DNA from: an uncultured Lachnospiraceae bacterium
GTDB taxonomy: Bacteria > Bacillota > Clostridia > Lachnospirales > Lachnospiraceae
Assembly: GCA_934293575.1 (NCBI GenBank)
Contig: CAKQYU010000005.1
Location: 46,147 to 110,146 of the forward strand
Direction of reading: 5' to 3'
Length of the DNA stretch: 64,000 bases
In this document: piece by piece, positions 25,439 through 47,088 of the stretch
Layout of the letters: every line of letters starts with the position of its first letter
How positions within the stretch are numbered: the first letter of the stretch is position 1
The notes under the pieces: generated by a model
Database searches by the model: none
The model's input: the letters and a program-made list of their open reading frames with translations, nothing else
Told to the model about the DNA's origin: nothing
Made by a program: the position numbers and the translations under genes

Positions 25439-25578
25439 TATGTATTATTTAATTCTATAGTTTCAGAATGAATTCTTGGAAGAAGATTTGGTATTATGAC
25501 ACGTTCAAGTATATTGGCGTGTTTTTTTATTCTTCCTGTTTTGTTATAATAAATTAAAATGGTTAAAGGAACACATAC

Positions 25579-27462: not shown

Positions 27463-27464
27463 AT

Positions 27465-28160: not shown

Positions 28161-28172
28161 TCCTGTTAACCT

Positions 28173-29327: not shown

Positions 29328-29341
29328 TTGATTCTCCTTAT

Positions 29342-30373: not shown

Positions 30374-30494
30374 AAAGAGTCCTCTTTTCCTTTAACTTAC
30401 AATGATTATACAATGCCGGGTATGCAAAAGCAAATAGATTTATCGGGGGTGCTATGCTATAATATTTTAGAAATATTTTAGAAATGGAGATTGT

Positions 30495-32168
30495 ATGAAA
30501 CACATTTATGATGAAAATAAAATTCTGATACAACAGGTATATCAGATGAAAGAGTATATTAATAAACAGGAGAATGTAAGAATTTTATGGTTGATTACAC
30601 AACTGGCACAACGTATTGCCAAATTACTTACGGAAGTAATTGAAAAACGCGATGCTTTTGCACAATTGGGAATGGAAATAAATGAGGAATATATTTTTTC
30701 TGTTTTAAATCAGATGCTTGGTGCACAGGAGGCAGAAGATTATATTTTATACGGAGATATTTTACAACTTCAGATGTTGCCGATTCTTTTGGAAATACAA
30801 AATGCGATTCAGAGTAGTTGTGAGGACTTAACGGAATCTTTTTGGGATCAAAATATGGATGCTTTAAAAAAGAATGATGTTGAATTGTATGAGCAGATGT
30901 TAAATTGTGAAGCATTGCATGCAAAATCTCCTTATTGTAATGATGTATATTCAATTGAAAATACAAATGTTGGGGCATTGACCTTGGCGGTTGATAATGG
31001 GGAATATCGGATTTATCTGCATAGCAATGAAAATCCAATGGATTCAGCCAGACAATTGATAGATGCGTATTACGATCCGTATAAGAATGATTACGTGATA
31101 TATGGGTTAGGTCTTTGCTATCATTGTAGATATCTTGCATCGCTGGATTATGATTTGGATATTACAATTATAGAAAATGATATTGGAATTTTGCAACTTG
31201 CTATGAACTATATGGATATGAGCTGGTATTTTAACCATCCGGGTGTAAAGATAATTTATGATGGGGATTGGAAAAAATGGGGAACAATTTTGAAGGAGCG
31301 AGAAGATGCAGTTGTTTTACTTCATCAACCATCTGTGAGACGGATTAAAAATCAGGAGATTCAGCAGCAAATTCAGAAATTCATGGTGCATGAGGGTTCA
31401 ATGCGGGCAAGAAGTAACCGGATGATACGGAATTTCCTTTATAATACAAAGCATTGTGAATTAGATATCACTGCCTTGCAACAGGACTTCCGAGGAAAGA
31501 ACGTGATTATTGTGGGAGCGGGACCTTCCCTGGATTTGAATGTGCAGCTGTTGAAGGAGAAAAAGGAAAATACCATTATTCTGGCGATGGGAGCCGTTTG
31601 CCGTAAATTATATAATCTGGGTATTCCTATGGATTATATTATTATTACAGATCCGAAAGAGATATCCAACGGACAGATTGCCGGTCTGGAACACCTTGAG
31701 ATACCGATGATTTTAATGTCTACTGCAACAAAAGGTGTGGCAAGATATTATCACGGAAAAAAATATCTGCTTTGTCAAAAAGGGTTTCCGGATGCCGAGC
31801 AGCTGGCAACTAAGAAGAATCTTCCGTTATTTGAAACCGGCGGTTCTGTGGCAACCACGGCTGTTGATATGTGTATCCGGTTTGATGTAAATAAAATTAT
31901 CTTTGTGGGAATGGATCTGGCATACACCGATAACAAAAACCATGCGTCCGGAGCCAGGGATGAGGGGATTACGGATTATTCCGGCATGATTATGGTAGAG
32001 GATGTATATGGAAAAGAGGTTCCAACCACAAGGCCGTTTTTGATGTACCGGGAATGGATTGAACGGCGGATTGCAAGGAAGGATGTTACGATGCCTGTAA
32101 TTGATGCCACAGAAGGCGGCGCACGGATTCAGGGCAGTGAAGTAAGAAAGCTTTCGGATGTGTTATGA
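30495..32168 (+). CDS. Maf-like flagellin glycosyltransferase, second paralog
   Basis: DUF115-like core GKNVIIVGAGPSLD...DYIIITDPKE...ETGGSVATTAVD; paralog of the 25579 ORF. Confidence 0.6.
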   Translation: MKHIYDENKILIQQVYQMKEYINKQENVRILWLITQLAQRIAKLLTEVIEKRDAFAQLGMEINEEYIFSVLNQMLGAQEAEDYILYGDILQLQMLPILLEIQNAIQSSCEDLTESFWDQNMDALKKNDVELYEQMLNCEALHAKSPYCNDVYSIENTNVGALTLAVDNGEYRIYLHSNENPMDSARQLIDAYYDPYKNDYVIYGLGLCYHCRYLASLDYDLDITIIENDIGILQLAMNYMDMSWYFNHPGVKIIYDGDWKKWGTILKEREDAVVLLHQPSVRRIKNQEIQQQIQKFMVHEGSMRARSNRMIRNFLYNTKHCELDITALQQDFRGKNVIIVGAGPSLDLNVQLLKEKKENTIILAMGAVCRKLYNLGIPMDYIIITDPKEISNGQIAGLEHLEIPMILMSTATKGVARYYHGKKYLLCQKGFPDAEQLATKKNLPLFETGGSVATTAVDMCIRFDVNKIIFVGMDLAYTDNKNHASGARDEGITDYSGMIMVEDVYGKEVPTTRPFLMYREWIERRIARKDVTMPVIDATEGGARIQGSEVRKLSDVL

Positions 32169-32294: not shown

Positions 32295-32329
32295 AAGCCA
32301 TATTTGCAACGGAATATGGCTTTTGTTTT
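32295..32329 (+). terminator. Rho-independent terminator after the maf paralog; may also act as a leader attenuator of the next gene
   Basis: AAGCCATATT-tgcaacgg-AATATGGCTT followed by ttgtttt. Confidence 0.5.
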
Positions 32330-32354
32330 ATATTGTTACAACAGGGAGAAGACG

Positions 32355-33347
32355 ATGATTCGTATTAGACAGGCAGAGTATGAAGATATACCGCTTATTA
32401 TGAAATTTATAGATGAGCACTGGAAGAAGGATCATATTTTTGCAAGGGATAGGAAATTTTTTGAATGGCAGTTTGTTGAAAATGGAAAAGTAAATTTTTA
32501 TTTAGGAATTGATGAGGAACAAAAAAAGATTTATGGTGTGTTAGGAGTGATTCTGTATAATCATAGCGAACATCCTGATATATCGGGAACCATATGGAAA
32601 ACGATTAAAAGTGATAATCCAATATTAGGTATTGAGATAGATCGTTATATGTTTTATGCTTTACAAACAAGGTATGCCTGCTCAGCCGGCATAAGTGAAA
32701 AGGCAAAAAGAATTTATCAGATGATGGGGCATAAAATTGTTTTGATGGATCATTTTTATCGGTTGGGTGACTTTAATGAGTATAAAATTGCTAAAATAAA
32801 AAACAAGAAGATTCCACAAATAGAAAATACAGATTATGAATTAAGAAAAATTTTTTCTCTGAGTGAAATGAAAGCAATTATATCCGAGGAAAATTTAAAA
32901 AATAGTGTTATGAGCAAGGATTATGATTATATTGAAAAAAGATATTTTGAACACCCCATTTATAATTATGATATTTGGAAAATCCAAAACTCAAAACGGA
33001 TAGGAGAAGCTGTATTGGTTACTAGAGAGGAGCAGGTCGCAAACAGTAAAATATGTAAAATTATAGACTATTACGGAGATGCAAAATTGTTAGGAAAAAT
33101 AACCCCTGCACTTGATCGATTGATAATGGAAAAATCATATGAGTATGTTGATGTTTATTCTTACGGAGTAGATAGACAGATATACGAGCAGGCAGGATTT
33201 ATTTCCGTGGAGGAAAATGATGAGAATATTATCCCCAATTATTTTCATCCCTTTGAGAAAAAAAATGTTTTTCTGAATATGCTTGATCCCCAAATTGCTG
33301 GTCTTCGTTTATTTCGAGGAGATGGGGATCAGGATAGACCGTGTTAA
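32355..33347 (+). CDS. Acetyltransferase-like protein (GNAT-like N-terminal region plus a second domain), putative
   Basis: IRIRQAEYEDIPLIMKFI resembles a GNAT start; RBS gggagaag. Weak, motif-level only. Confidence 0.35.
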   Translation: MIRIRQAEYEDIPLIMKFIDEHWKKDHIFARDRKFFEWQFVENGKVNFYLGIDEEQKKIYGVLGVILYNHSEHPDISGTIWKTIKSDNPILGIEIDRYMFYALQTRYACSAGISEKAKRIYQMMGHKIVLMDHFYRLGDFNEYKIAKIKNKKIPQIENTDYELRKIFSLSEMKAIISEENLKNSVMSKDYDYIEKRYFEHPIYNYDIWKIQNSKRIGEAVLVTREEQVANSKICKIIDYYGDAKLLGKITPALDRLIMEKSYEYVDVYSYGVDRQIYEQAGFISVEENDENIIPNYFHPFEKKNVFLNMLDPQIAGLRLFRGDGDQDRPC

Positions 33348-33373: not shown

Positions 33374-34099
33374 ATGAAATATTATTTAGTAACAGGTGCC
33401 TCTTCCGGTATTGGAAGAGAAGTTGCAAAACAAATATCAAATGAAGATACAACTGTTGTCTTAGTAGCAAGAAGAGAAGATAAATTAAAGGAGTTACAAT
33501 TAGAATTAATGGGACCCTCCGTTGTAATACCTTGTGATTTGCGGCGGAGTGTGGATATAAAAAATGTTTTTGATGAATTGAGTAAGAAAAAAATAAAACT
33601 TGATGGTTTGGTGTATTGTGCCGGAATATGTTTTGTAAAACCAATTAAAATTATGGAAGAAAATGAATTGCAGGATATGTTTCAGATTAATGTATTTGCT
33701 TTTTACGAAATGTGTAGGTATTTTTCGCAGGTTAGTGTTTCTAACAAAGGTGCCTGTATTGTTGGTGTTTCATCTTATGCAGCGGTTTCTAAAGAAGCTG
33801 GGATGTCTGCATATGCCATGACGAAAGAATCTATGAATGTCCAAACACAGGTTTTGGCACAGGAATTTTTAAAAAGAAAAATCAGAATAAACACTGTAAT
33901 GCCGGCACATGTTATGTCAAAGATGGCAGAGGATGAAAATACATGGACTGAGGAAGAATTAGAGATTGTAAAATGTAAACAACCATTGGGAATTATACCA
34001 ATCGATAATGTTGTCAAGGTTATAAAGTTTTTGTTATCAAGGGATGCCCAATATATTACTGGTCAGTCTATTTCGATAAATGCAGGTTATATAAAGTAG
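33374..34099 (+). CDS. SDR-family oxidoreductase (ketoacyl-ACP reductase-like)
   Basis: TGASSGIGREVAK Rossmann motif, NVFAF, S..AY....K catalytic pattern. Confidence 0.8.
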   Translation: MKYYLVTGASSGIGREVAKQISNEDTTVVLVARREDKLKELQLELMGPSVVIPCDLRRSVDIKNVFDELSKKKIKLDGLVYCAGICFVKPIKIMEENELQDMFQINVFAFYEMCRYFSQVSVSNKGACIVGVSSYAAVSKEAGMSAYAMTKESMNVQTQVLAQEFLKRKIRINTVMPAHVMSKMAEDENTWTEEELEIVKCKQPLGIIPIDNVVKVIKFLLSRDAQYITGQSISINAGYIK

Positions 34100-34113: not shown

Positions 34114-35766
34114 ATGAAGGGTACGTTTAATAATGTAAAAATCGAAGGTGTTGCATCGGCAGTTCCTTGTTATGTGATGGACAATATGGATTATGTTGAT
34201 TTGTTTGGTAAGAGGAGAGTAACAAAACAAATCAAGATGACAGGTGTTCGAAAACATCATATGTCATTAAGGTATCAAAAAACATCTGATTTATGCATAC
34301 GAGCAGCTAGAGATCTAATTAGGCATTTGGAGTGGGAAAAAAATGAAATAAAAATATTGGTTTTTTGTACGCAATCCGCAGATTATGAAATTCCAACAAC
34401 TGCCATTGATTTGGCGGAACGATTGGGACTGGGTCATGATTGCATGGCTTTTGATATAAATATAGGCTGTTCAGCTTTTGATTTGGGGATTCAAACTGTA
34501 GGAAGTTTGTTACAAAGTCAGCCGGATGGAACAAAGGCAATTTTATTGACTGGTGATGTATCGAGCGCCCTGCAAGGTGGAGATGTTTTAAAGAAAGAGG
34601 ATATCATTAATTCCATGATGTTTGGTTCGGCAGGTTCGGCGGTTGCTATTAAAAAGGAATCAGGGCATCAGATAGTTTTTCAGAATTTTAGTGATGGTTC
34701 TGGTTGGGATGCAATTTTAAGATATCGTCGTTCAAAGACAAAAATGCAAGGAAACCGGGTTTTTGAATTTGCAATTTATGATGTGGCAGAGCATGTGATG
34801 AATTTGAAAGAATCACTTCAGGTTGAGGATAGGGATATTGACTATTATTGTTTTAATCAGTCTCAGAAATTAATCTTGGAATGTTTGGTGGATACTTGTG
34901 GCTTGAATGGAGAAAAGGTTCTTTATTCCTATGAGGAATATGGAAACACATCTGGAGCATCCATTCCGGTTACGTTATGCCATAACAGGAATAAATTCCT
35001 AAATAAAGAGTCTATAAATATTTGCAGCTGCGGTTTTGGCGTTGGATTATCCTGTGGTATTTCTGTATTTCAGATTAATCCTAAGAATATTTTACCAATC
35101 ATTGAAACGGATGAGCATTTTGATGAACATATCAAGCATTGTAGTTTTCTAGACGAAAGATATGCTCTTTTGATGGATACATCTTCAGACATAGGACAGT
35201 TGATTGGAAGACAATTGGATCGGGATGGTTGTAATCTTGGTTTGTTTGGAGATACAAAGAGTGCTGCTGCTTTAACGGAGCAATTTTTTTGGAAGGATTG
35301 TGAAGTCTACGAAAGGGATGATTTAAAATCCATTGTGTCGCGTGGAGTCCAATATCATGCAGTCGTTTATAATTTAAACTGCATAGAAAAGGAGAAAATC
35401 CAAAAAGAGGTTTTGTATTTATATCAAAATCAGACACTACAGAACAATGCGGTTATTATTTTAATTTCGGAGGCTTGCGAAGAGGCTGATCTGAGGCTGT
35501 TTTTACAGAATTTAGAAGAACAATGCGACTATGGAATTCGGGCTAATGCAGTTCTTTATATTCGTGAAAGTATGGATTTATATCCTGATATTGGGGATCG
35601 TATGGATTGGGTAGAAAGAAAACTGGCGATGCTGGATTCACAGAATATGGATCGCCCATTTTATTTGACAAATGTTGTGGCGAGATTAGTGTCGTCAAAG
35701 TTTGCTGGAGTTTCACAGTCGGTTATTCATATTTCGGATGGCAACATAAATATGAGAGACTGTTAA
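34114..35766 (+). CDS. KASIII (FabH)-like protein no. 1 with a C-terminal degenerate Rossmann/SDR-like extension
   Basis: DINIGCSAFDLG (active-site Cys), FNQSQ in place of the HQAN His motif, and EYGNTSGASIP (Asn). The last ~200 aa include LLMDTSSDIGQLIG, reminiscent of VTGASSGIG. Confidence 0.65.
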   Translation: MKGTFNNVKIEGVASAVPCYVMDNMDYVDLFGKRRVTKQIKMTGVRKHHMSLRYQKTSDLCIRAARDLIRHLEWEKNEIKILVFCTQSADYEIPTTAIDLAERLGLGHDCMAFDINIGCSAFDLGIQTVGSLLQSQPDGTKAILLTGDVSSALQGGDVLKKEDIINSMMFGSAGSAVAIKKESGHQIVFQNFSDGSGWDAILRYRRSKTKMQGNRVFEFAIYDVAEHVMNLKESLQVEDRDIDYYCFNQSQKLILECLVDTCGLNGEKVLYSYEEYGNTSGASIPVTLCHNRNKFLNKESINICSCGFGVGLSCGISVFQINPKNILPIIETDEHFDEHIKHCSFLDERYALLMDTSSDIGQLIGRQLDRDGCNLGLFGDTKSAAALTEQFFWKDCEVYERDDLKSIVSRGVQYHAVVYNLNCIEKEKIQKEVLYLYQNQTLQNNAVIILISEACEEADLRLFLQNLEEQCDYGIRANAVLYIRESMDLYPDIGDRMDWVERKLAMLDSQNMDRPFYLTNVVARLVSSKFAGVSQSVIHISDGNINMRDC

Positions 35767-35796
35767 AAGATATATTTTATTATGGAGGATAAGATT

Positions 35797-36018
35797 ATGA
35801 CATTACAAGAGAAAATCGAAATGTTAGAGGAAGTTATGGATGTTGAAGAAGGAGAATTAAGTGAAGAGATGGTACTAAACGAGATTGAAGAATGGGATTC
35901 GTTAAGTACACTTTCATTAACCGTTGAAATGAAAAAAAGATTTGGAATGAATCTTACAGAGGAACAGATAAAAAACTTTCATACGGTGGGAGATATTTGT
36001 AATTATATTCCGGATTGA
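35797..36018 (+). CDS. Acyl carrier protein (subfamily A, 1 of 3)
   Basis: 74-aa acidic helical protein with an EEWDSLSTLSL phosphopantetheine-attachment motif. Start set 7 nt after ggagga. Confidence 0.7.
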   Translation: MTLQEKIEMLEEVMDVEEGELSEEMVLNEIEEWDSLSTLSLTVEMKKRFGMNLTEEQIKNFHTVGDICNYIPD

Positions 36019-36062
36019 GAAAAGATTACTTTGAAAATTTTGGTGAGGTGTTAATAAGTACT

Positions 36063-37067
36063 ATGTACGGAGAATATCATAATATTAAAATCTGTGGTAT
36101 TGCTGCTGCAGTTCCAAAGAATACAATTGATAATGAGATATATGCAGAAAAATTAGGAAACCGACGTGCAAAAAAACAGGTATTATATACTGGAATTCGT
36201 CATCGTCATTGCGTAGAACAGGGGCAGTCTGCCTCTGATTTGAGTTGCTACTCAGCAGAGAAATTGTTAAGTGAATTGCATTGGAATCGAGATGAAATTC
36301 GTGTTTTGGTGAATGTAACACAATCTGCTGATTTGTATACGCCCTCTACAGCTATGATTATACAAAAACGTTTGGGTATTGGTCAGGATTGTATTGCATT
36401 TGATGTAAATTTAGGGTGTACAGGGTATGTAAGTGGACTACAAATTGTAGCAGCTTTGCTACAGAATACTGGTGGAAAAGGTCTTCTTTTGGTTGGAGAT
36501 GGAAGATATCATGAAATGCCGGAAGTTCCGACTACTGATTCTTTGCTGTTTGGAGATGGAGGTGCAGCAACGGCAATAGAATTAGAGGAAAACCATACAA
36601 TGCAGTATTCTCAAAAAACAGATGGTAATAGATATAATTTGTTATATACTGCGTTAGACGGAACTATGAAAATGGATGGAAATGCTGTTCTTCTTTTTTC
36701 CTTAAACGAGGTATGTGAAAGTATAAGGGAGTTTCGTGAGTATTTTCAAGTACGGGAAACTTCAATTGATTATTATATTCTGCATCAGGCACAAAAAATG
36801 ATCTTAGATGGTATTGCAAGAGAATGTAATATAGAAGCAGAAAAAATACCGCAATCTTATGAGGAATATGGAAATACATCAACGGCATCGATTCCAATAA
36901 CAATATGTAGTAATATAGAGGAAATAAGAAAAAAGCATCATGCCAGATTATTCTTATGTGGATTTGGAATTGGTTTGGCATGGTCAAATGTGGTTGTTGA
37001 CTTGGATACAACATGTATTTATCCGCTTCTAGAGACAGATTTTTGTTATAAGGATTTAGGAGAATAA
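36063..37067 (+). CDS. KASIII (FabH)-like protein no. 2 (canonical Cys-His-Asn)
   Basis: DVNLGCTGY, LHQAQKM, EEYGNTSTASIP. Start set at MYGEYHNIKICG by analogy with FabH N-termini; the track's TTG at 36015 is possible. Confidence 0.7.
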   Translation: MYGEYHNIKICGIAAAVPKNTIDNEIYAEKLGNRRAKKQVLYTGIRHRHCVEQGQSASDLSCYSAEKLLSELHWNRDEIRVLVNVTQSADLYTPSTAMIIQKRLGIGQDCIAFDVNLGCTGYVSGLQIVAALLQNTGGKGLLLVGDGRYHEMPEVPTTDSLLFGDGGAATAIELEENHTMQYSQKTDGNRYNLLYTALDGTMKMDGNAVLLFSLNEVCESIREFREYFQVRETSIDYYILHQAQKMILDGIARECNIEAEKIPQSYEEYGNTSTASIPITICSNIEEIRKKHHARLFLCGFGIGLAWSNVVVDLDTTCIYPLLETDFCYKDLGE

Positions 37068-37203
37068 TAAAGGATGAGTTAAGGGTAAAAATGAGATTGC
37101 AAATTGGAAACCGAATGGTTTATACAAATCTGTAAATTTTTTACAACATGCATTAGACGAATGTATTAAAAAAATCTAATAAAAAGATATGGAGGAATAA
37201 GAT

Positions 37204-37425
37204 ATGACGAGAGAAGAAAAAATGGAAGTGATTGCAGATATTTTAGAAATTGAGGTAAGTGATTTATCGGAGGATAAAATTTTAGAGGATTATGATACAT
37301 GGGATTCGGTTGCAGTGTTATCTGTAATTGCATTTATGAACGAGCAGTATAATCGTTTCCCACATGCATCTGAGATTCGAGCTTATAAAACAGTAGGGGA
37401 TTTAATGAATTATATGACTGAATAG
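37204..37425 (+). CDS. Acyl carrier protein (subfamily A, 2 of 3)
   Basis: DTWDSVAVLSV motif; paralog of the 35797 ORF. Confidence 0.7.
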   Translation: MTREEKMEVIADILEIEVSDLSEDKILEDYDTWDSVAVLSVIAFMNEQYNRFPHASEIRAYKTVGDLMNYMTE

Positions 37426-37465
37426 AGGCTATGTAGATATAATCAGTAAGAAAGAGAAGGAGCAT

Positions 37466-38203
37466 ATGGACAATTTTTTAAAACTTGGCGGTAAACGGGT
37501 TTTAGTAACCGGGGCTTCATCTGGGATTGGAAAAGCAACTGCAATTGCCTTGAGTGAACAAGGCGCAAATGTAATCATTATCGGACGTCGGGAAAATGAA
37601 TTAAATAATACCTATCAACAACTGTATGGAGATGGGCATGTTATGATTGTTGCAGATTTAACGGAGTTTGATCGATATACAGAGATATTTAAGCTTGCGA
37701 CTCAGCAAGGAAAATTAGATGGTTTAGTACATTGTGCAGGATTAGCAAAGCCTGTTCCTGCAAAAATGGTTTCTGAAAAATTGATAAAAGAGACATTTGA
37801 CGTAAATTTTGTGGCGTTTATGGAATTAGTTAAACATTTTATTAAACGAAAGAATTCTGAAAGAGGAAGTATTGTTGCTGTATCTTCTTATTTGGCAAAT
37901 AGGCCGCATATGTGCATGAGTATATATGCAGCTTCAAAGGGTGCCTTAGATAGTGCGGTAAAGTCCCTGGCATATGAATTCCTGGACAAGAATTATCGTG
38001 TAAATACGGTGGTCCCAGGATGGGTGGAAACACCGATGGTAACAGATTCTGCCAAAGTGTATGAAACAAATGTTGTGGAAGAACCTTCGTTGGGGGTTGC
38101 ACAGCCGTCGGATATTGCAAATGCAATTTTATTTTTAATAAGCGATGTTTCAAGATATGTAACCGGACGTAGTTATTATGTTGATGGAGGAAGGCTAACA
38201 TAA
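37466..38203 (+). CDS. SDR-family oxidoreductase (second copy)
   Basis: TGASSGIGKATA, NVIIIGRR, S..YAASK catalytic motif. Confidence 0.8.
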   Translation: MDNFLKLGGKRVLVTGASSGIGKATAIALSEQGANVIIIGRRENELNNTYQQLYGDGHVMIVADLTEFDRYTEIFKLATQQGKLDGLVHCAGLAKPVPAKMVSEKLIKETFDVNFVAFMELVKHFIKRKNSERGSIVAVSSYLANRPHMCMSIYAASKGALDSAVKSLAYEFLDKNYRVNTVVPGWVETPMVTDSAKVYETNVVEEPSLGVAQPSDIANAILFLISDVSRYVTGRSYYVDGGRLT

Positions 38204-38215
38204 GATAGGGGAAAT

Positions 38216-39022
38216 ATGAATATTCAGGAAGTAAAAATTGTTATAACCGATTTAAAAAGAAAGTATGGAAAACTATATTCTAATATTATTTGGCCCGATC
38301 TTACCTTACATGAAATCGTTGAAACTTATGAAGGTGAAAAAGGACTGGTTCTTGTGGTTGCTGAGGAGAATCGTAATAAGATTTTTTATGCGGTCACAGA
38401 TATTTCAATATTAAAAGAATTATTAATGCAAATTCAGAGAACAGCAGTTTTGGAGTATCACTACAAGGACATAAATGATATGGATGATGTGTTCCTTGTG
38501 GCCGGATTAATTCATTACGCAAATTATATTCGAGTAACCTCAACCTATTTGGAAAAACCATGTTGGGGAGGATCGAAACGACAAGATATGTTAAATGAAT
38601 TATATAACCCAGATTGTGGGGAATATCCCGTTCTTGAAGATGTGGAGGAGTTAGATCAATTAACAAGAACAAGCTTTGATCCTCTAATTGATGATGTTTT
38701 TTCTTTAGAAGAATGGAAAAATATTATACAGAATAAAGAATGCTTTGTAATAAAAGAAAATGGAAAAATAGTTACTTATTATGTGTGGCGGAGGGAAGGA
38801 AAAAAATTATATAGTAATATGTCATTGAATCTTGGACCTGCCAACTATATGTATAATTTGGAACGAAGGGTATTTGAAACAATGTGGAATGAAGGCATTC
38901 GAACGTTTTATGCATGGTATAATGAAGAAAATACCCGGGCTATAAAGCGAGGTATTTTTCCGGAATGTGCAAGAAATAACTGTATACATGATGCTATTTA
39001 TATAAATAAAAAGAGTGAATAA
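38216..39022 (+). CDS. Hypothetical protein inside the acyl cassette (possible acyltransferase)
   Basis: ORF with RBS; no clear motif. Confidence 0.35.
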   Translation: MNIQEVKIVITDLKRKYGKLYSNIIWPDLTLHEIVETYEGEKGLVLVVAEENRNKIFYAVTDISILKELLMQIQRTAVLEYHYKDINDMDDVFLVAGLIHYANYIRVTSTYLEKPCWGGSKRQDMLNELYNPDCGEYPVLEDVEELDQLTRTSFDPLIDDVFSLEEWKNIIQNKECFVIKENGKIVTYYVWRREGKKLYSNMSLNLGPANYMYNLERRVFETMWNEGIRTFYAWYNEENTRAIKRGIFPECARNNCIHDAIYINKKSE

Positions 39023-39040
39023 GAGAAAAGAGGGTTTAAG

Positions 39041-39259
39041 ATGAGTAACGAACAAAAAATTGAACTTCTAGAGGATATGATGGAAGTAGATGGAGGTAGT
39101 TTGGCAGGGGACATGTTGTTGGAAGATATTGACGAATACGATTCATTTTTTAAGTTATATCTTGTAACCTATGTGAAAAAAGAAATGGGGCAGAAATTAA
39201 CCGTAGAGGAAATTGCCCAATTTAAAACAGTGCAGGATATTTGTGATTATTTAAATTGA
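39041..39259 (+). CDS. Acyl carrier protein (subfamily A, 3 of 3)
   Basis: DEYDSFFKLYL motif; paralog of ACPs 1 and 2. Confidence 0.65.
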   Translation: MSNEQKIELLEDMMEVDGGSLAGDMLLEDIDEYDSFFKLYLVTYVKKEMGQKLTVEEIAQFKTVQDICDYLN

Positions 39260-39311
39260 TATATAATTGACTCTGACAAGATTATATATGAAATGTAAGG
39301 AGAGGATATAG

Positions 39312-40835
39312 TTGAGAAATTCTGTTTTATGCTATTTAGAGGAAAGTGTTGATAAATTTCCTCAAAAGATTGCACTTACTGATGCACAAGGAGATTATAC
39401 TTTTACACAGTGGAAATCCATGGCGCTTTGTATTGCAAATGCTATTATTGAAAAGAAAATGGGGAATAAGATTCCGATATTGGTGTACTTGCCGAAATCG
39501 GCAATGACGTTAATTTCTTTTGCGGGTGTTTTGTATAGTGGTAACTATTATACACCCACAGATGTGAAATTTCCCTTTGAAAAGGTCAATTCCATTATAA
39601 AATGCCTCCATCCTGAAATAATCGTAACTGATAAAAAGCATGGTAAATTCTTGAGCGATAATGGAATAGATGAGAAACGGTTTGTTTATGTAGATGAACT
39701 GGATTTTTCTATTACATACAAGAATGCACAATTGTTAAATAGTCAGATTATTGACACAGATTTGGCATATGTGTTCTTTACTTCCGGTTCTACCGGCGTC
39801 CCAAAGGGCGTTGCTATTAGACATAAAAGTATTATGGATTACATTGATTGGGCTGGTGAAAAATTCTCGATTGATAGTGATACTAGAATTGCCAATCAGG
39901 CACCGTTTTATTTTGATAATTCAATTTTGGATATCTATTTATGTATGAGTAAGGGAGCACATTTATTTGTTACTCCTGAGATGTATTTTGCATTTACTGC
40001 AAAATTGCTGGAATTTATCCGAGACAATCAGATTAATTTCATTTTTTGGGTACCATCGGCATTAATTAATGTTGCAAATAGCAAATTGTTAGAGCAAATT
40101 GATTGTAGCTGCATAAAAAAGGTTTTATTCTGTGGTGAGGTAATGCCGAATAGACATTTAAATTATTGGAGAAAGGAATTACCGGATGTTCTATATGCAA
40201 ATCTTTATGGACCGACTGAAATCACAGATGTTTGTTCGTATTATATAGTTAATCGAACATTTGATGATGATGAACCGCTGCCAATAGGTTTTGCATGTGA
40301 AAATACGCAAATTATGTTGTTAAATGATGAGAATATGCTTATTACAAGTCCGGAAGAAATGGGAGAATTGTGTGTTCGTGGGACAAGTTTATCGGCAGGA
40401 TATTACAATAATCCCGAAAAAACGGCTGAGGCATTTGTTCAAAATCCTTTAAATTCACATTATGAAGAAAAAATTTACAGGACAGGAGATTTGGCACATT
40501 ATAATCAATATGGTGAAATTATGTTTGATGGAAGAAAAGATTTTCAGATTAAACATATGGGATATCGTATTGAATTGGGAGAGATTGAGACAGCACTTTT
40601 AAGTATGGATGCAGTATATAATGCATGTTGTATTTATGATACAAAGAATAGTAAAATAGTAGCATTTTGTAAAACGGATCAAGTGATTACAGAAGTAGCG
40701 ATTCGGAAGTGCTTAGGTGGAATCTTACCTAAATATATGATTCCGTCTCAATATGTTCTATTGGAGGAGCTGCCATATAACGATAATGGTAAAATAGATC
40801 GTAAGGAATTAAAGAAAAAATATATAGATGAATAA
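39312..40835 (+). CDS. Adenylate-forming enzyme (AMP-binding superfamily; DltA-like or acyl/aminoacyl-ACP ligase-like)
   Basis: YVFFTSGSTGVPKGV core motif, YGPTE, GDLA...DG...GRKD. TTG start after RBS aaggagagg. Confidence 0.8.
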   Translation: MRNSVLCYLEESVDKFPQKIALTDAQGDYTFTQWKSMALCIANAIIEKKMGNKIPILVYLPKSAMTLISFAGVLYSGNYYTPTDVKFPFEKVNSIIKCLHPEIIVTDKKHGKFLSDNGIDEKRFVYVDELDFSITYKNAQLLNSQIIDTDLAYVFFTSGSTGVPKGVAIRHKSIMDYIDWAGEKFSIDSDTRIANQAPFYFDNSILDIYLCMSKGAHLFVTPEMYFAFTAKLLEFIRDNQINFIFWVPSALINVANSKLLEQIDCSCIKKVLFCGEVMPNRHLNYWRKELPDVLYANLYGPTEITDVCSYYIVNRTFDDDEPLPIGFACENTQIMLLNDENMLITSPEEMGELCVRGTSLSAGYYNNPEKTAEAFVQNPLNSHYEEKIYRTGDLAHYNQYGEIMFDGRKDFQIKHMGYRIELGEIETALLSMDAVYNACCIYDTKNSKIVAFCKTDQVITEVAIRKCLGGILPKYMIPSQYVLLEELPYNDNGKIDRKELKKKYIDE

Positions 40836-40873
40836 ATAGATGACTTTGTTTATAGTATGACAGGAGGATTAAA

Positions 40874-41104
40874 ATGGATAAAATATTAGATATATTAAAT
40901 GAAATACATCCAGAATTTAATTATGAAAATAGTAGTGATTTTATTGAAGATGCTTTACTAGATTCTTATGATGTAATTGAATTAGTTGCTCGTCTTGAAG
41001 AAGTATATGAAATACAGATAGATGGTATGGATATTCTTCCAGAATATTTTTGTGACTTGGAGGCAATCAAACGGATTATAGTTAAAAATGGTGGAAGCGT
41101 ATGA
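40874..41104 (+). CDS. Acyl/peptidyl carrier protein (subfamily B, 1 of 2)
   Basis: LLDSYDVIELVARLEE motif; paralog of the 43094 ORF. Confidence 0.65.
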   Translation: MDKILDILNEIHPEFNYENSSDFIEDALLDSYDVIELVARLEEVYEIQIDGMDILPEYFCDLEAIKRIIVKNGGSV

Positions 41105-42045
41105 AAGCAAAGTGGAGCGGAAAGAGGATAGCTGGCATTTTATCAATTTTAGATTCAGATAAAAAACGTGCTGTTTCTGAAATGCATGTTTATGCAGCTA
41201 AAGTCTTGCTTTCGAAGAAAATGATTCAAAAAAGCGAAATAGGTGCAATTGTCGTTATAACTTTAACACCAGATTATTATTTGCCTCAAGTCAGTATGAT
41301 TTTGCATGATGAGCTTAACTTGAGTGAAGACGTTATTTGTGTCGATATTGCACAAGGTGGAACAGGTTATATTGTTGGTTTGACACAGGCATTTATGTTA
41401 TTGGAACATATCAAGGATAAAAAGGTTCTTTTGTTTACTGGGGATATAATGAGTTGTTCTAGTCAGAATGCGTCAAGAGTGTTTACGGTTTCTGTCATTG
41501 AGAACAATAATTCTTATGGTAAGATTTACTGCGAAATAGACTCAGATATGGAAAGTTCTAAAAAGATGATCCTTCCTTGTGGAGGGTTTCGCCATCCCGT
41601 ATTTCATGACAATGATGCTTATATTGCAATGCAAAATGGTCAGATTGGTAATGGGTTAGAATTGCAGATAGATACGGAAGCGTTCGAAAAATATTTTCTT
41701 GTGCAGGAACCTATATTGTTTAAGACTCTACTTCAAGATAGTCGATTTAGTATAGAAGATATTAAAAAAATTTTTTTTCAATTACCATTTAAATCTAACG
41801 CACATTTTATATTAGATTGTATTAATCTTAATAAAGAAACTGTGAAATATGAGCAAACAGAAACGGTAGACAATATAAGTGCTTCTGCAATACCACGAAT
41901 TATTTGTAAAGAGATGCAGGAATCTTTTTCGAGTGAAAAGGAATACTGTTTATTAATGAGCTGTGGGTCTGGATTTAGTCTGGCTGGGCTAATTATGGAG
42001 ATTGGTTGTATGGATTTTTGTGAAGTGATAGAAACAATAATCTGA
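41101..42045 (+). CDS. KASIII-like protein no. 3 lacking the active-site cysteine
   Basis: FabH-like fold; CVDIAQGGTGY has Gly where the nucleophilic Cys sits in paralogs (LGCTGY, AGCSGY, QACTGF). NISASAIP retains the Asn; the His motif is altered. Confidence 0.6.
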   Translation: MKAKWSGKRIAGILSILDSDKKRAVSEMHVYAAKVLLSKKMIQKSEIGAIVVITLTPDYYLPQVSMILHDELNLSEDVICVDIAQGGTGYIVGLTQAFMLLEHIKDKKVLLFTGDIMSCSSQNASRVFTVSVIENNNSYGKIYCEIDSDMESSKKMILPCGGFRHPVFHDNDAYIAMQNGQIGNGLELQIDTEAFEKYFLVQEPILFKTLLQDSRFSIEDIKKIFFQLPFKSNAHFILDCINLNKETVKYEQTETVDNISASAIPRIICKEMQESFSSEKEYCLLMSCGSGFSLAGLIMEIGCMDFCEVIETII

Positions 42046-42053
42046 GGTGTGTT

Positions 42054-43082
42054 ATGAATACGTTTTTTTATGATAAAAGGATAAGTGGGGTATTGGGTAT
42101 TTTGCCTGAAACCGTAAAATATTACGAAGACGAATTAATTGATGGGTTTAGTAAACGAAATCAAATGATTAAAAAAAATATGGGTTATGGAAAAAGATAT
42201 CATGCAAAACCGACTACTACTACTGCTGATTTATGTATGAGTGGATTGCAGTATTTGTTCGATAAAAAATTAATCGACAAAGAGGATATTTCTGCTATTA
42301 TTGTGGCAACTTTTACCCCCGATTATTTTGTGCCACAAATATCGACATTGATTCATCAGGGCTTTGGATTTTCAAGTGATGTATTTAATTTGGATATATG
42401 GGCTGGTTGTAGCGGGTATGTGGAAGGATTATTGCAGGCATTTTTGTTTTTAGAAACCAATCCTCAAAAAAAAGTATTATTGTTTACTGGAGATGTTATA
42501 AATCGAATGGAAGAAACCATTTACAAATATGAAGAACCATATTATGGTGGTGATGGGGCGAGTATTTCCATTGTTGAAAATTCACCATCACAAAAAATTC
42601 CATTTTTGTTGATGTGTGATGGAAAAGGGAAAGATTTGATTACATTTCAACAGGGAGCATTTGCAGATATTTATCATCAAAAATTAGTTAGTACTGTACA
42701 GAACAATCCAATGGAATCATTTCGATATTTTCAAGAAAAAGTACCAAACCTTATAGAACGATTGTTAGAGTATGGTTCTATTAAGAAAGAAGATATTGAT
42801 CATTATTTTCTGATTCACGCAAACAAATTGGCAGTGTTGAAAATGGCAGATCGACTGCAGATAAGCAGAGAAGCGGTATCTTCTGATATAGTAGAAAAAT
42901 ATGGCGATATAAGTGCTTCTCTTAATCCAGTTTCCATTATTGACTATTATGGAGAAAAAATGCTGAAAAAACAAACCCAAAAAGTGGTTTTATGCGGATA
43001 TGGGGCTGGTGCCAGATGGGGAGCCACCGTTATGGATATTGGAAATATGAATTTTTGTGAAAATTATTATACGGATTTATAA
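42054..43082 (+). CDS. KASIII-like protein no. 4 (Cys and His present, Asn to Asp)
   Basis: LDIWAGCSGYVEG, LIHANKL, EKYGDISASLNP. Confidence 0.65.
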   Translation: MNTFFYDKRISGVLGILPETVKYYEDELIDGFSKRNQMIKKNMGYGKRYHAKPTTTTADLCMSGLQYLFDKKLIDKEDISAIIVATFTPDYFVPQISTLIHQGFGFSSDVFNLDIWAGCSGYVEGLLQAFLFLETNPQKKVLLFTGDVINRMEETIYKYEEPYYGGDGASISIVENSPSQKIPFLLMCDGKGKDLITFQQGAFADIYHQKLVSTVQNNPMESFRYFQEKVPNLIERLLEYGSIKKEDIDHYFLIHANKLAVLKMADRLQISREAVSSDIVEKYGDISASLNPVSIIDYYGEKMLKKQTQKVVLCGYGAGARWGATVMDIGNMNFCENYYTDL

Positions 43083-43093
43083 GGAGAATAAGA

Positions 43094-43324
43094 ATGGAAC
43101 AAATTAAAGAATTATTGATGACAATAAGACCAGAATTTAATTTTGAAACAAGTGATAATTATATTGAAGATGGATATTTGGATTCACTTGATATAACAAC
43201 TTTGATATCAGTATTAGAGGAAACATATGGAATTGTAATTGATGCACTAGAAATAGTGCCGGAAAATTTTTATAACACTGCAACGATTATCAATCTTGTG
43301 AGGAAAAGTGGAGGAGAGGTCTGA
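43094..43324 (+). CDS. Acyl/peptidyl carrier protein (subfamily B, 2 of 2)
   Basis: YLDSLDITTLISVLEE motif. Confidence 0.65.
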   Translation: MEQIKELLMTIRPEFNFETSDNYIEDGYLDSLDITTLISVLEETYGIVIDALEIVPENFYNTATIINLVRKSGGEV

Positions 43325-43326
43325 TT

Positions 43327-44391
43327 ATGCAGTTTGTGTTCAAGGGGAAAAAAATAACTGGTATGTTGGGGGTTTTGCCAGAAAATGAGTATTTGTTTGA
43401 AGATGAAACTCGTGATTTTTCATCAAGTCATGCAAGGCGATTGAAAAAGATAATGGGATATGGAAAGCGAAGAAGAGTGAAAAAAGATACAACTACCTCT
43501 GATTTGTGTATCTTTGGTATGAATTACCTTTTAGAGAATGATTTGATAAAGAAAGAAGATGTAGGTGCGATTATTGTCAGTACAATGACTCCGGATTATT
43601 TTCTTCCACATGTGAGCAACATTGTTCACGGAGAATGTGGATTTTCTGATGAAGTTGTATGTTTAGATATTCCTCAAGCCTGTACAGGTTTTTTACTGGG
43701 CTTACTTCAGGCATTCATGTTGCTGGATCATATGAAGGATAAAAAAGTAGTTGTATTTACAGCCGATGTATTGAATCGCAAAATATACGATGAAGAAGTT
43801 TTTACGGAGCCACCATTTGGAGGGGATGCTGCTACAGTTACAATTGTTGAAAATGATGGGGCAGCTGAAGATATCTATTTTGACATTCGAATGGATGGAA
43901 AGGACAGAAATTGTTTGATTATGCCAACGGGTGGATTTCGTATGCCATGGACCGAGTCTGATGAAAAGGTAGATATTGGTGATGGCATTTTAAGGGATGC
44001 AAATCGATTAAATATGGATGGCTCGACTGTATTTAATTTTGTACAACAGAAGGTACCTCCTTTAATTGATGATTTAATGAAATTTGCAAATAAGTCAAAG
44101 GAAGATATGGATTGGTTTTTATTCCATCAGCCTAATAAATTTATGCTTCAAAAACTTGCAGAAAAATTAGGCGTTCCATATGAAAAAATGTTTATGAATA
44201 TTGTTGAAGAATATGGAAATTCCAGTGGTTCTGTAATTGGAATTAATATTGTTCATAATTTGGGCTCCAAGCTTGAAGATGATTTGTATGAGTGCTGTTT
44301 ATCCGCTTTTGGTGGAGGGTTGTCATGGGGAGCCCTGGTAATGCAGCTTGGAAACATGGATTTTTGTGAGATGATAGAAAGTAATCTATAA
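43327..44391 (+). CDS. KASIII (FabH)-like protein no. 5 (canonical Cys-His-Asn)
   Basis: LDIPQACTGFLLG, FHQPNKF, EEYGNSSGSVIG. Confidence 0.7.
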   Translation: MQFVFKGKKITGMLGVLPENEYLFEDETRDFSSSHARRLKKIMGYGKRRRVKKDTTTSDLCIFGMNYLLENDLIKKEDVGAIIVSTMTPDYFLPHVSNIVHGECGFSDEVVCLDIPQACTGFLLGLLQAFMLLDHMKDKKVVVFTADVLNRKIYDEEVFTEPPFGGDAATVTIVENDGAAEDIYFDIRMDGKDRNCLIMPTGGFRMPWTESDEKVDIGDGILRDANRLNMDGSTVFNFVQQKVPPLIDDLMKFANKSKEDMDWFLFHQPNKFMLQKLAEKLGVPYEKMFMNIVEEYGNSSGSVIGINIVHNLGSKLEDDLYECCLSAFGGGLSWGALVMQLGNMDFCEMIESNL

Positions 44392-44600
44392 AACCATTCT
44401 AATTAATGTAGTGAGAGTGTGTAAAGTTTTATTTTGGGAGAATGAAAATTGAAATATAAAAAAGTAGTTGTAATCGGTTCTAATACAATTGCTGTTGAAT
44501 GTGTAAGGATTTTATTTAAGGAATATCGTATTGAAGATTTGGCTGTAGCGGAATATTTGTTGTAAAACAGGAGCGTTTTGTTAAAGGGGTCATATGTTGA

Positions 44601-45401
44601 ATGAGTAATAAAAACGATAAAATAAATGATATAATTAGTCATTGTATTGGAAAATCCAATAGAACAAATTGTTACTTGTCCTATTCCCAGGTTGAAGAGA
44701 TACTACAAGCAGGTAGAAGTCAACTTATAGTAGGAGCAAATGTAGTGTATCTTTTAGTGCCTAATGATAATTATAATGAGTTGATTTTTTTTGCATACGA
44801 TAATGCGCTTAATATGATTGAAAATCAGGATTTGTTGCTAAAAAATTTATCTTCTGAAAAAAAATGTGTGATAAATATTGTTTCTAAGGATGAGTCAAAA
44901 TACAAAGAGATTGTAGACGCACTTGGTTTTAATTTATATAAAAGGTATGTTAGAAAAGCAATAAAAACAAAAGAAGATTTTTTTCCGATATTTGAGCATA
45001 AAAGTTATGATTTTGTTGATATAAGTGAAATTATGCTGATTCAGAATATGATGATGGAAACATTTGATTTAATATCTGATAAAATTCCAAGTAAAGCGGA
45101 ATTAGAAAAGTTAATTGAACAAAAGTGTATTTTAAAATATTCGGTGGATGATAAAATTCGGGGATTTTTAATTTATGAACATCAGGGGAAAAGGTCATAT
45201 TTGCGTATGCTTTGTATACAGGAAGATTTTAGAGGACAAGGAATAGGAAAAATTCTGTTGAAAAGATATTTTATGTTAGAGGCGAATCATACAGAATTGT
45301 TTTATTTATGGGTTGATTCTGAAAATTTGGATGCAATTGGTTTATATGAAAAAAATGGTTATATTTCTGATGGTCTAAAACAATATATTTACATAAGATG
45401 A
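44601..45401 (+). CDS. GNAT-family N-acetyltransferase
   Basis: C-terminal RMLCIQEDFRGQGIGKILLK, the GNAT acetyl-CoA-binding motif A. Confidence 0.7.
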   Translation: MSNKNDKINDIISHCIGKSNRTNCYLSYSQVEEILQAGRSQLIVGANVVYLLVPNDNYNELIFFAYDNALNMIENQDLLLKNLSSEKKCVINIVSKDESKYKEIVDALGFNLYKRYVRKAIKTKEDFFPIFEHKSYDFVDISEIMLIQNMMMETFDLISDKIPSKAELEKLIEQKCILKYSVDDKIRGFLIYEHQGKRSYLRMLCIQEDFRGQGIGKILLKRYFMLEANHTELFYLWVDSENLDAIGLYEKNGYISDGLKQYIYIR

Positions 45402-45430
45402 GTTGAACATATACAATAGGAGCTATTAGT

Positions 45431-46384
45431 ATGAATAATCTCGAAATCGTAATGTACCATTACGTCCGACCAATTAAAAACAGCAAATATCCCAATATCA
45501 AGGGGCTGGAACTGGAATTATTCAAGCAGCAATTGGATTTTTTTAAGGCAAATTTTTCCGTTGTAACAATGGGGGAGGTAATTGACTCCTTGTCCGGAAA
45601 ATGTACCCTCCCGGATAATGCGGTTCTTTTAACTTTTGATGACGGATACATGGATCATTATCAGCATGTGTTTCCATTGTTAAAACAGTATAATATGCAG
45701 GGCTCATTTTTTGTTCCGTCCGGTATACTAAAATATGAACAGGTTTTGGACGTCAATAAGATACATTTTATTCTTGCATGTATGCAGCTTGAGGAGTTGT
45801 TGCCAAAGGTTTATGCCATGCTGCGGGAATATCGGGATAAGGGGTATGAGCTGGAATCGGATGATGTATTGTTTTCTAAATTGGCAGTGGCGAACCGGTG
45901 GGATTCCAAGGAAGTTATTTTTGTAAAACGACTGCTACAGTCCTATCTGGATGAAAGTCTTCGAGGGGAAATGGTAAATCGGTTGTTTGAGGAAGCTGTT
46001 GGAGTGCCGGAGCGGGAATTTTCCCATGAGCTTTACGTGAATTTAGAGCAGATTAAAGAAATGAAGAATGCAGGAATGTATTTTGGATTACACGGAGAGC
46101 GGCATTATTGGTTGAATCATTTACCGGTTGATAAGATGAAAGAGGATATTAATAACAGTCTGGAATATTTTCGGGATGTAATGGACATGAACTATCTTGC
46201 GATGAATTATCCATACGGTGGTTATAATGAGGACGTGTTAGCGTATTGTAAATCCATTGGTTGTAAGCTTGGATTTTCCGTGGAAGCCAGACATGTGGAT
46301 TTTGACCGAGATAATCCGTTGGCGGTACCAAGATTAGATACCAATGATTTTCCGCCGAAGAGTGAAAATTATAAAAATATGTGA
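45431..46384 (+). CDS. Polysaccharide deacetylase (NodB homology domain)
   Basis: VLLTFDDGYMDHY metal-binding motif; HGERHYW. Confidence 0.75.
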   Translation: MNNLEIVMYHYVRPIKNSKYPNIKGLELELFKQQLDFFKANFSVVTMGEVIDSLSGKCTLPDNAVLLTFDDGYMDHYQHVFPLLKQYNMQGSFFVPSGILKYEQVLDVNKIHFILACMQLEELLPKVYAMLREYRDKGYELESDDVLFSKLAVANRWDSKEVIFVKRLLQSYLDESLRGEMVNRLFEEAVGVPEREFSHELYVNLEQIKEMKNAGMYFGLHGERHYWLNHLPVDKMKEDINNSLEYFRDVMDMNYLAMNYPYGGYNEDVLAYCKSIGCKLGFSVEARHVDFDRDNPLAVPRLDTNDFPPKSENYKNM

Positions 46385-46407
46385 GACAATAAAAGAGGTA
46401 TAATATT

Positions 46408-47088
46408 ATGAAATGCAAGTACAAAATAGATGGAATCGATGTTTATAAATATATTATGCCGGTGATTCGTTCGAATATGTATATTATGCTTGTTGATAAT
46501 CAAGCATTAATTATTGATCCCAATATAAACGAAGATGCAGTGGATTTGCTAAAGGATAATCATGTGAAGATGGTTACAATCATTTTGACGCATGAACATT
46601 ATGACCATATTTCGGGAGTGAATTATTTTCGAAAATATTTCCGGTGTACGGTAATTGGTAATGAAAAGTGCAAGGATATGACTGTGGATCCGACAAAGAA
46701 TATGGCAGCCTTTTTTATGGCAATGTTTATTGATAAATCAGAAGCAGAACGGCAAAGCGTAAACGATATATTAAGTGAAACCTATAGTTGTAATGTGGAT
46801 TTGGGATTTATAAACGAGAAGGAATACGTCATTGGATCATTGCATTTATTGTTAAGGGAAACTCCGGGTCATTCTCCTGGAAGTATATGTATAGAAGTAA
46901 ATCGTAGTTATGTTTTTTCCGGAGACAGTCTTGTAGATGGAGCTAAAATTATAACTAGATTACCGGGCGGAAATAAGAAGGATTATCAAGAGATTACAAG
47001 GCCATATTTGGAATCATTAGATGATAATATAATTATATTTCCCGGACATGGAAATGAGGGTAAAATAAGTGAATTTAAAATAGGATAG
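46408..47088 (+). CDS. MBL-fold metallo-hydrolase
   Basis: ILTHEHYDHISG (HxHxDH), downstream GDS and PGHG motifs. Confidence 0.75.
   Translation: MKCKYKIDGIDVYKYIMPVIRSNMYIMLVDNQALIIDPNINEDAVDLLKDNHVKMVTIILTHEHYDHISGVNYFRKYFRCTVIGNEKCKDMTVDPTKNMAAFFMAMFIDKSEAERQSVNDILSETYSCNVDLGFINEKEYVIGSLHLLLRETPGHSPGSICIEVNRSYVFSGDSLVDGAKIITRLPGGNKKDYQEITRPYLESLDDNIIIFPGHGNEGKISEFKIG

Follow-up and report, generated by a model that had tools for sequence, protein, structure and literature searches.

Active-site divergence among five KASIII-like paralogs in a flagellin glycosylation island of an uncultured Lachnospiraceae bacterium

Introduction

A stretch of 64,000 nucleotides from an uncultured Lachnospiraceae bacterium (assembly GCA_934293575.1, contig CAKQYU010000005.1, positions 46,147 to 110,146; the whole stretch is called the window here, and its first letter is position 1) contains five open reading frames (ORFs) resembling beta-ketoacyl-ACP synthase III (KASIII, FabH; ACP, acyl carrier protein). 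These ORFs, named K1 to K5, differ at the positions of the catalytic triad, which raises the question whether the differences form one designed set or have arisen in separate ways. An initial annotation, made from the DNA sequence, had regarded them as a systematic division of labour, in which two paralogs would elongate and the others would transfer acyl groups to a sugar acceptor or serve as chain-length or priming factors.

The flagellins that gut Lachnospiraceae produce rank among the major immune antigens; to our knowledge, hardly anything is known of the glycans that they carry. Searches of the literature on Lachnospiraceae flagellin glycans and on Cj1303/Cj1307 turned up nothing functional. 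From flagellin glycosylation islands, fatty acid synthase (FAS)-like genes are on record, but were never characterised (PMC4875605, PMC7874193).

In this study, we compared the five paralogs with their relatives in genomes, metagenomes and protein collections. We favour an explanation to which, taken as a whole with its two gene modules, three origins and proposed enzyme roles, we assign a probability of about 0.6: the triad divergence would have three separate origins, namely a conserved non-canonical family (K4), a decayed copy (K3) and a recent single substitution (K1).

Triad residues of the five paralogs

The five ORFs were found again at their annotated positions, all on the + strand, and each matches the Pfam family ACP_syn_III_C, K3 with 25.8 bits at a cutoff of 26.6. 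All scores against the ncbifam FabH models fall under the cutoffs. Pairwise BLAST comparisons separated two subfamilies, one comprising K1 and K2 (39% identity) and the other K3, K4 and K5 (30-40%). E. coli FabH, whose sequence is identical to PDB 1hn9, was used as reference; its triad Cys112/His244/Asn274 is also given in PMC4807248. MAFFT alignments of 6, 105, 58, 123 and 156 sequences returned the same triad columns every time.

In these columns, K1 (34114-35766; 550 aa) has Cys/Asn248/Asn, K2 (36015-37067; 350 aa) Cys/His/Asn, K3 (41101-42045; 314 aa) Gly87/Gln227/Asn, K4 (42054-43082; 342 aa) Cys119/Ile254/Asp285, and K5 (43327-44391; 354 aa), which belongs to a type of 353-358 aa, again Cys/His/Asn (C/H/N). 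The full triad is thus confined to K2 and K5, and the set as a whole departs from the KASIII pattern. The thiolase fold of FabH (E. coli 1hn9; nearest solved relative 4efi from Burkholderia xenovorans) is common to all five, but K1, K3 and K4 each miss at least one triad residue, and the setting of the genes is not a fab operon but a flagellin-glycan island that has its own dedicated carriers. The alignments agree with the initial annotation that K2 and K5 are canonical, that K1 keeps Cys and Asn with the His changed to Asn (FNQSQ), and that K3 has Gly for Cys, an altered His motif and a retained Asn. For K4, the Cys and the change of Asn to Asp were recovered as annotated, whereas the supposedly retained catalytic His was not: the column holds Ile and a His follows one residue later.

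Non-canonical triads are uncommon among the relatives. Of the 150 nearest representatives of 50% clusters in a library of 1.84 billion proteins, 140 have C/H/N and 10 have other residues; of 120 K1 relatives, 5 deviate. Sequencing or assembly artefacts as the source of the substitutions deserve practically no credence. The same residues recur, across different samples, in independent assemblies of ~99% nucleotide identity (L001, L009, L010, L011) and in the protein clusters P0001, P0100 and P0136, which hold 20-36 member sequences each. Because of this recurrence the triad changes are not assembly errors, and nothing was found in favour of such an origin.

A conserved Cys/Ile/Asp clade around K4

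In K4, the segment FLIHANK places Ile in the column of FabH His244 and His in that of Gln245, and HMMER alignments of K4 to PDB 4efi and 3gwa gave the same register as MAFFT. Remoter relatives of K4 read F-[I/L/V]-QANK. His255 was considered as the catalytic His and rejected, since neither the register of the alignments nor IQANK, the consensus of the clade, agrees with it; a His at this +1 position is limited to the sublineage of the window (clusters P0100 with 99% and P0101 with 70% identity). The pattern of Cys, then Ile, Leu or Val, then Asp is found in all of the ~28 clusters of the K4 clade down to 44% identity, and also in P0256 at 39%, with the motifs WxGC, [I/L/V]QANK and YGD. Compared with the sister clade of K5-type proteins, His208, Asp285, Asn291, Tyr49, Asn42 and Arg35 are invariants of the K4 clade; His208, present in 23 of 24 sequences, belongs to a loop that is an insertion with respect to FabH. 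The clade is small, with three full-length 50%-identity representatives found.

The AlphaFold2 (AF2) model of K4 has a FabH-like fold (predicted local distance difference test score, pLDDT, of 93.3), with 4efi as best PDB neighbour (template modelling score, TM, of 0.89), and the top 50 Foldseek matches are all FabH-like enzymes of the KAS III fold (FabH, PqsD, BioZ). CerJ, DpsC and ChlB3 are absent from these top 50 and from the phmmer matches of K4 in PDB at E < 0.01; in both sequence and predicted fold, K4 is closer to FabH than to CerJ or DpsC. The acyltransferases CerJ, ChlB3, ChlB6 and AfcL share the thiolase fold and pass an acyl group from Cys to O, N and S acceptors including carriers and amines (PMC9573744, PMC12186527), which is the chemistry proposed for K4. 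Their triad consists of Cys (or Ser), His and Asp, and its His and Asp stand 5-6 residues apart in the C-terminal half (His296/Asp301 in ChlB3; PMC9573744), whereas Asp285 of K4 sits at the position of FabH Asn274 without a His 5-6 residues ahead of it; in K1 and K3 this position is taken by Asn. Since K4 keeps the acyl-accepting Cys and lacks both decarboxylation residues, its conserved sequence pattern agrees better with a role in transfer or as a partner than with Claisen condensation. To this extent the annotated likeness to KASIII-derived acyltransferases holds for K4, as a conserved Cys-bearing protein, although the sequence likeness to CerJ or DpsC is missing, as it is in all five paralogs.

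Scans with K4 recovered the source metagenome-assembled genome (MAG) and two distant loci among genome contigs, and 20 loci among metagenomes, three of them with true K4-type genes. In seven of eight other loci (L004, L005/L006, L007, L012, L013, L014 and L021; the exception is L028), a canonical C/H/N KASIII of 353-358 aa is encoded within ~13 bp 5' of the K4-type gene. In L004, L005, L007, L012 and L013, the five loci for which genes were called, its start overlaps the stop of a gene for a 76-77-aa DltC-like carrier. Every locus of sufficient length also contains a DltA-like adenylase gene, at varying position. L028 also holds a highly degenerate KASIII-like ORF two genes downstream of its K4-type gene (4001-5038, 5932-6948), with A/N/K in the triad columns and no Pfam match.

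K3 and its canonical counterpart

K3 is the positional ortholog of the canonical KASIII found next to K4-type genes. Its counterpart in L007, collinear with K3, is a protein of 355 aa with the C/H/N triad; identities to L007 are 70% for the K4 ortholog, 62% for that of the carrier A4 (40874-41104, + strand; DltC-like, 76 aa) and 44-48% for that of K3. Compared with this ortholog, K3 has in-frame deletions of 26 and 6 residues near the N-terminus, in a region that aligns with the Arg36-Thr37-Gly38 segment of FabH, and has lost a 9-residue FGGD loop. Its Cys has been replaced by Gly and its His by Gln, and the HQPN motif is scrambled. Three-point distances gave a branch length of ~0.66 for K3 against ~0.20 for the ortholog, i.e. 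an approximately 3-fold difference. Among 5.8 billion proteins, one other K3 cluster was found (P0001, 99% identity), no homologs lay between 99% and 38% identity, and the next matches, at 38%, were canonical K5-types. In the sequences compared, the Gly/Gln state of K3 is confined to one species.

The absence of a nucleophile from K3 stood up to proper alignment, which places Gly in the Cys column. A shifted nucleophile was considered in the Cys of 'ICVDIAQGG', seven residues upstream, and discarded because this Cys occupies the same column in canonical K5-types. A frameshift as origin of the scrambled His motif was likewise rejected: in a tblastn comparison of the canonical ortholog with K3 DNA, one continuous alignment in a single frame was obtained, and matches elsewhere were noise. 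Directly 5' of the altered His motif, K3 contains an A7T8 homopolymer run (41764-41778), either a slippage site or an AT-rich stretch arisen by chance. From its residues, K3 is predicted to be catalytically dead, either a relic or a retained scaffold. Since it has no nucleophile it would not be an acyltransferase, and this part of the initial annotation does not stand.

Chain-length factors (CLF) are of the KAS I/II type and have Gln at the position of the active-site Cys. A ketosynthase/CLF pair as in type II polyketide synthases was rejected for this locus, as all five proteins are of the KAS III type and K3 carries Gly, not Gln, in the Cys column.

A close known arrangement is PqsBC of the Pseudomonas quinolone signal (PDB 5dwz, 6esz), one of the dead/active heterodimers of FabH-like proteins that are known to exist (PMC4807248). 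Like PqsB and PqsC, K3 and K4 are encoded by adjacent genes for a triad-less and a Cys-bearing protein (8 bp apart); PqsB is shorter and triad-less like K3, and PqsC keeps Cys and has no Asn, like K4 (PMC4807248). K3 and K4 could accordingly be read as a PqsB/PqsC-like heterodimer, with dead K3 selected as structural half and K5 condensing separately, an option that we regard as possible but rather unlikely. It is favoured by the short gap between the two genes, the retained start/stop overlap of K3 with the preceding carrier gene, the intact state of K3 in five assemblies, the adjacency of K5-type and K4-type genes in seven of eight other loci, and the degenerate ORF near the K4-type gene of L028. 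However, the Cys/His dyad of an active PqsC-type subunit is not present in K4: PqsC keeps the canonical His and has Val at the Asn position, whereas K4 has Ile and Asp there. The sequence similarity of PqsC is weak as well (E ~1e-6 with K2, no match with K4). Also, the dead state is limited to one species, the partner of K4 in its relatives is fully canonical, and the nonsynonymous to synonymous ratio of 5:3 in K3 gives no clear sign of purifying selection.

At the other extreme, K3 and perhaps K1 may be pseudogenes in the making, functionless and redundant with K5 and K2. The approximately 3-fold accelerated branch of K3, its several deletions and the loss of two of three triad residues agree with this tentative reading, which we nevertheless consider somewhat improbable: neither K3 nor K1 contains a stop codon or frameshift in any assembly, and no trace of an alternative frame was detected. 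In the explanation with three origins, K3 is a decayed copy, either relic or scaffold.

K1 and its SDR-derived tail

K1 consists of a KASIII domain (aa 1 to ~335) and a tail (aa ~338-550) derived from a short-chain dehydrogenase/reductase (SDR). The Asn248 codon, AAT at 34855, is present in all strains compared. Proteins with this architecture form a family of > 1,245 homologs, of which the best 120 have 528-573 aa, except six of 338-465 aa. C/H/N was found in 115 of these 120 (96%), and the nearest relative (P0137/L008, 69% identity) reads FHQAQK where K1 has FNQSQK. The change from His to Asn is species-specific, and the nearest orthologs are canonical. The remaining five comprise four relatives of 55-57% identity with C/S/D and one with C/Q/N. 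Members of the family with these residues occur in L012 (7382-9016) and L004 (3450-5090) and as P0143, P0146, P0148, P0153 and P0152. L013 has no K1-type gene. Taken together with this absence, the C/S/D and C/Q/N relatives indicate that the K1 family repeatedly tolerates the loss of decarboxylation residues.

By its position, Asn248 would probably weaken malonyl decarboxylation and leave acylation of the Cys intact. Replacing the catalytic His of FabH decreased activity just ~10-fold (PMC4807248); by analogy, K1 may still condense weakly. The annotated claim that only two paralogs are competent for condensation is right in that K2 and K5 are the sole holders of a full triad, but is overstated because FabH with a replaced His keeps activity (PMC4807248). 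For a pseudogene state of K1 speak the dispensability of the gene, as seen in L013, and the recurrent triad losses in its family; on the other side, K1 has a single active-site change and its strain differences comprise 4 nonsynonymous and 7 synonymous substitutions.

The initial description of the tail as a degenerate, non-catalytic SDR was borne out. A hidden Markov model (HMM) built from 118 K1-family tails matches the SDRs of the window itself with 47-50 bits over the full SDR length and E. coli FabG with 25 bits, and every PDB match of a 20-sequence tail profile was an SDR. The AF2 model of the tail (pLDDT 90.8) shows a Rossmann beta-alpha pattern, with the top 50 Foldseek matches all SDR, FabI or FabG. 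The tail thus has the fold and homology of SDRs, but neither the TGxxxGxG motif nor the Ser-Tyr-Lys catalytic residues: MDTSSDIGQ (annotated as TSSDIGQ) stands where SDRs have TGASSGIG, and K1 and its close relatives have a deletion that removes the YxxxK segment, with Y-x-x-x-K retained in some distant family members. By these motifs and the model, the tail is best described as a pseudo-SDR, a non-catalytic SDR remnant. A docking role, e.g. pairing with the SDR encoded directly upstream, would be plausible. The adjacency of an SDR gene and K1 is kept in L008, L012 and L004.

The idea of a purpose-built set, with K2 and K5 for elongation and K1, K3 and K4 as acyltransferases, chain-length or priming factors, appears very unlikely. 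In its favour, the K4 triad is conserved through its clade, in several strains every ORF is unbroken and has a ribosome-binding site, and the independent C/S/D and C/Q/N triads of the K1 family hint that a non-condensing role is viable. Against it stand the lack of a nucleophile and of two loops in K3, the Gly of K3 in place of the Gln of CLF/KSQ proteins, and the fact that K4 resembles CerJ, DpsC and ChlB3 in the shared fold only. The changes of K3 and K1 are absent from their closest orthologs (the 355-aa KASIII of L007; P0137/L008), which are canonical, so that a 'systematic' division of labour is contradicted by species-limited changes.

Proposed working of the two modules

In the explanation with three origins, the five genes would contribute the parts with thiolase fold to a section (~32.3-47.1 kb) of the flagellin glycosylation island that assembles a side chain, and are organised in two modules. 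Five stand-alone carriers (A1-A5), each with a D-S phosphopantetheine motif and a weak match to PP-binding and unmentioned in the initial annotation, interleave the KASIII genes. All genes of both modules lie on the + strand.

Module 1 has the order SDRa-K1-A1-K2-A2-SDRb. SDRa (33374-34099; adh_short_C2 E = 2e-42), located directly 5' of K1, and SDRb (37466-38203; adh_short_C2 E = 1.9e-51) encode intact ketoreductase (KR)-type short-chain reductases. A1 (35782-36018; 78 aa, EEWDSL motif) and A2 (37204-37425; 73 aa) match PP-binding with 31 and 21 bits, respectively, and A1 is 81% identical to the carrier after the K1 ortholog in L008. K2, as a normal decarboxylating KASIII, would together with the acyl carrier proteins (ACPs) and the ketoreductases yield a short 3-hydroxyacyl-ACP; the product is expected to remain at the 3-hydroxyacyl stage because a dehydratase and an enoyl reductase are not present in module 1. 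The start of K2 is uncertain. The listed TTG start at 36015 overlaps the stop of A1; an ATG at 36063, 16 codons further on, gives 334 aa, and the K2 ortholog in L008 has 335 aa, which fits the ATG start.

Module 2 has the order A3-adenylase-A4-K3-K4-A5-K5. A3 (39041-39259; 72 aa, DSF serine motif) matches PP-binding weakly (17.5 bits). The following gene (39312-40835) encodes a DltA-like amino-acid adenylating enzyme with an AMP-binding match and 327 bits for TIGR01733 (cutoff 317.4); its 330 bits for the DltA subfamily model are under the cutoff of that model. A5 (43094-43324; 76 aa) is a DltC-like carrier, 54% identical to the carrier after the K4 ortholog in L007. As in D-alanylation by DltA/DltC, an adenylating enzyme of ~505 aa is followed by a carrier of ~76 aa with an LLDS motif, but scores are under the DltA and DltC equivalog cutoffs, DltB and DltD are not present, and KASIII-like genes come next. 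The DltA-like enzyme may load an amino acid or other acid onto the DltC-like carrier, and K5 would be the canonical condensing enzyme. K4 plausibly forms an acyl-S-Cys intermediate and would not carry out a His/Asn-based decarboxylative condensation; most likely, it would hand on an acyl or aminoacyl moiety, with a carrier or the nonulosonate's amino group as acceptor. AfcL, ChlB3 and CerJ are known KASIII-like enzymes in which amide, ester and thioester bonds arise via acyl-Cys (PMC12186527, PMC9573744). Alternatively, K4 could pair with the neighbouring canonical KASIII, as the specialised subunit of a heterodimer.

Downstream, genes for a GNAT, a polysaccharide de-N-acetylase-type protein and an MBL hydrolase (44601-47088, + strand; Pfam and ncbifam matches) are likely tailoring genes, and the de-N-acetylase-type and GNAT proteins could expose and then re-acylate an amino group. 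The likely product of the locus would be a hydroxyacyl or aminoacyl side chain on a nonulosonic acid, and transfer to the sugar acceptor is plausible from genomic context. Sugars decorated with alanyl and N-(3-hydroxybutanoyl)-alanyl groups are known (PMC7371886; a title in the reference list of PMC7685785). In flagellin islands of Aeromonas and Enterobacteriaceae, an ACP, a FabG-type reductase and an AMP-dependent ligase occur among nonulosonate and maf genes, with a proposed acyl addition (PMC7874193, PMC4875605); those sets use LuxC and LuxE with no KASIII listed, whereas five KASIII-like proteins, five carriers and a DltA-like adenylase are encoded here. As speculation, and clearly unlikely in this full form, the K4-type protein with an adjacent canonical KASIII and DltC-like carriers would represent a previously unrecognised class of thiolase-fold N-acyltransferase with the alternative set Cys119/His208/Asp285, attaching aminoacyl or hydroxyacyl chains to flagellin nonulosonic acids in gut Clostridia, with K3 as a partner turned pure scaffold.

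Several points weigh against the explanation with two modules and three origins. At the canonical position, K4 lacks a conserved His, whereas known KASIII-like acyltransferases use Cys/His/Asp; the clade-specific His208 might substitute for it. The idea of an obligate pair is weakened by L028, where two carriers, and no K5-type gene, precede the K4-type gene. The K3 ORF, its ribosome-binding site (GGTGGA) and its ATGA overlap with A4 are intact in five assemblies (the window and four others), compatible with a selected non-catalytic role. Strain differences in K3 are 3 synonymous and 5 nonsynonymous (synonymous to nonsynonymous 13:1 in K2 and 10:2 in the adenylase gene), and eight substitutions are too few to choose between relic and scaffold. 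Finally, dehydratase and aminotransferase genes for a di-amino nonulosonate were not found among the ORFs scanned, which lie beyond position 15000.

Diversification of KASIII-like enzymes is already known, and the present finding adds further variation on it. This type of locus is met again in many metagenomes of gut Clostridia and suggests an unusually elaborate acyl or aminoacyl decoration from parts that resemble those of FAS and nonribosomal peptide synthetases (NRPS) and act in trans. Two uncharacterised families were defined, the Cys/Ile/Asp KASIII-like clade and the KASIII-pseudoSDR fusion (> 1,000 members), and K3 offers a natural case of a condensing enzyme becoming a dead paralog beside its own partner. 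The locus also calls for caution: where paralogs of one genome differ in their active sites, ancient design and recent decay can be mixed together, and ortholog comparison alone tells them apart.

Island setting and further observations

Upstream of the KASIII section, two flagellins, FlaG, FliD, two Maf/MptE-like proteins, a CMP-sugar transferase, NeuC and NeuB are encoded; the Pfam matches to two flagellins, two Maf (MptE-like) proteins and NeuA-, NeuC- and NeuB-type proteins span 23382-32168. Downstream follow the GNAT, the polysaccharide-deacetylase-type protein, the MBL hydrolase, a Fic protein and a family 2 glycosyltransferase (GT2). From the linkage of flagellin and Maf with NeuB, NeuC and the CMP-transferase, the region is a nonulosonate-type flagellin glycosylation island. 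A carboxyltransferase gene (51352-52896) was considered as malonyl-CoA supplier, but it lies beyond the GT2/Fic end of the island among unrelated genes and was not assigned to the locus.

The window DNA shares ~99% identity with a MAG (uncultured Lachnospiraceae; Hadza gut sample). L001, a MAG of the source species, is 99% identical over the KASIII section, but the GNAT-bearing stretch (window 44548-45445) is absent from it and the identity of its GT2 gene (window 48969-50018) is just 81%. Between strains, the island thus differs at its distal end. Two conserved island proteins, of 347 aa (32304-33347) and 268 aa (38216-39022), have no Pfam or NCBIfam match. For the latter gene, nonsynonymous differences between strains are in excess (15 vs 6 synonymous, two haplotypes summed). 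A Fic/DOC-family gene with a C-terminal helix-turn-helix (HTH) lies inside the island between the genes for the MBL hydrolase and GT2 (47270-48352). On the - strand, the longest NeuC-type ORF (28173-29414) overlaps the NeuB-type ORF (29342-30373) by 73 bp; NeuC orthologs have 384-386 aa, so that the real NeuC start is probably ~28 codons further in.

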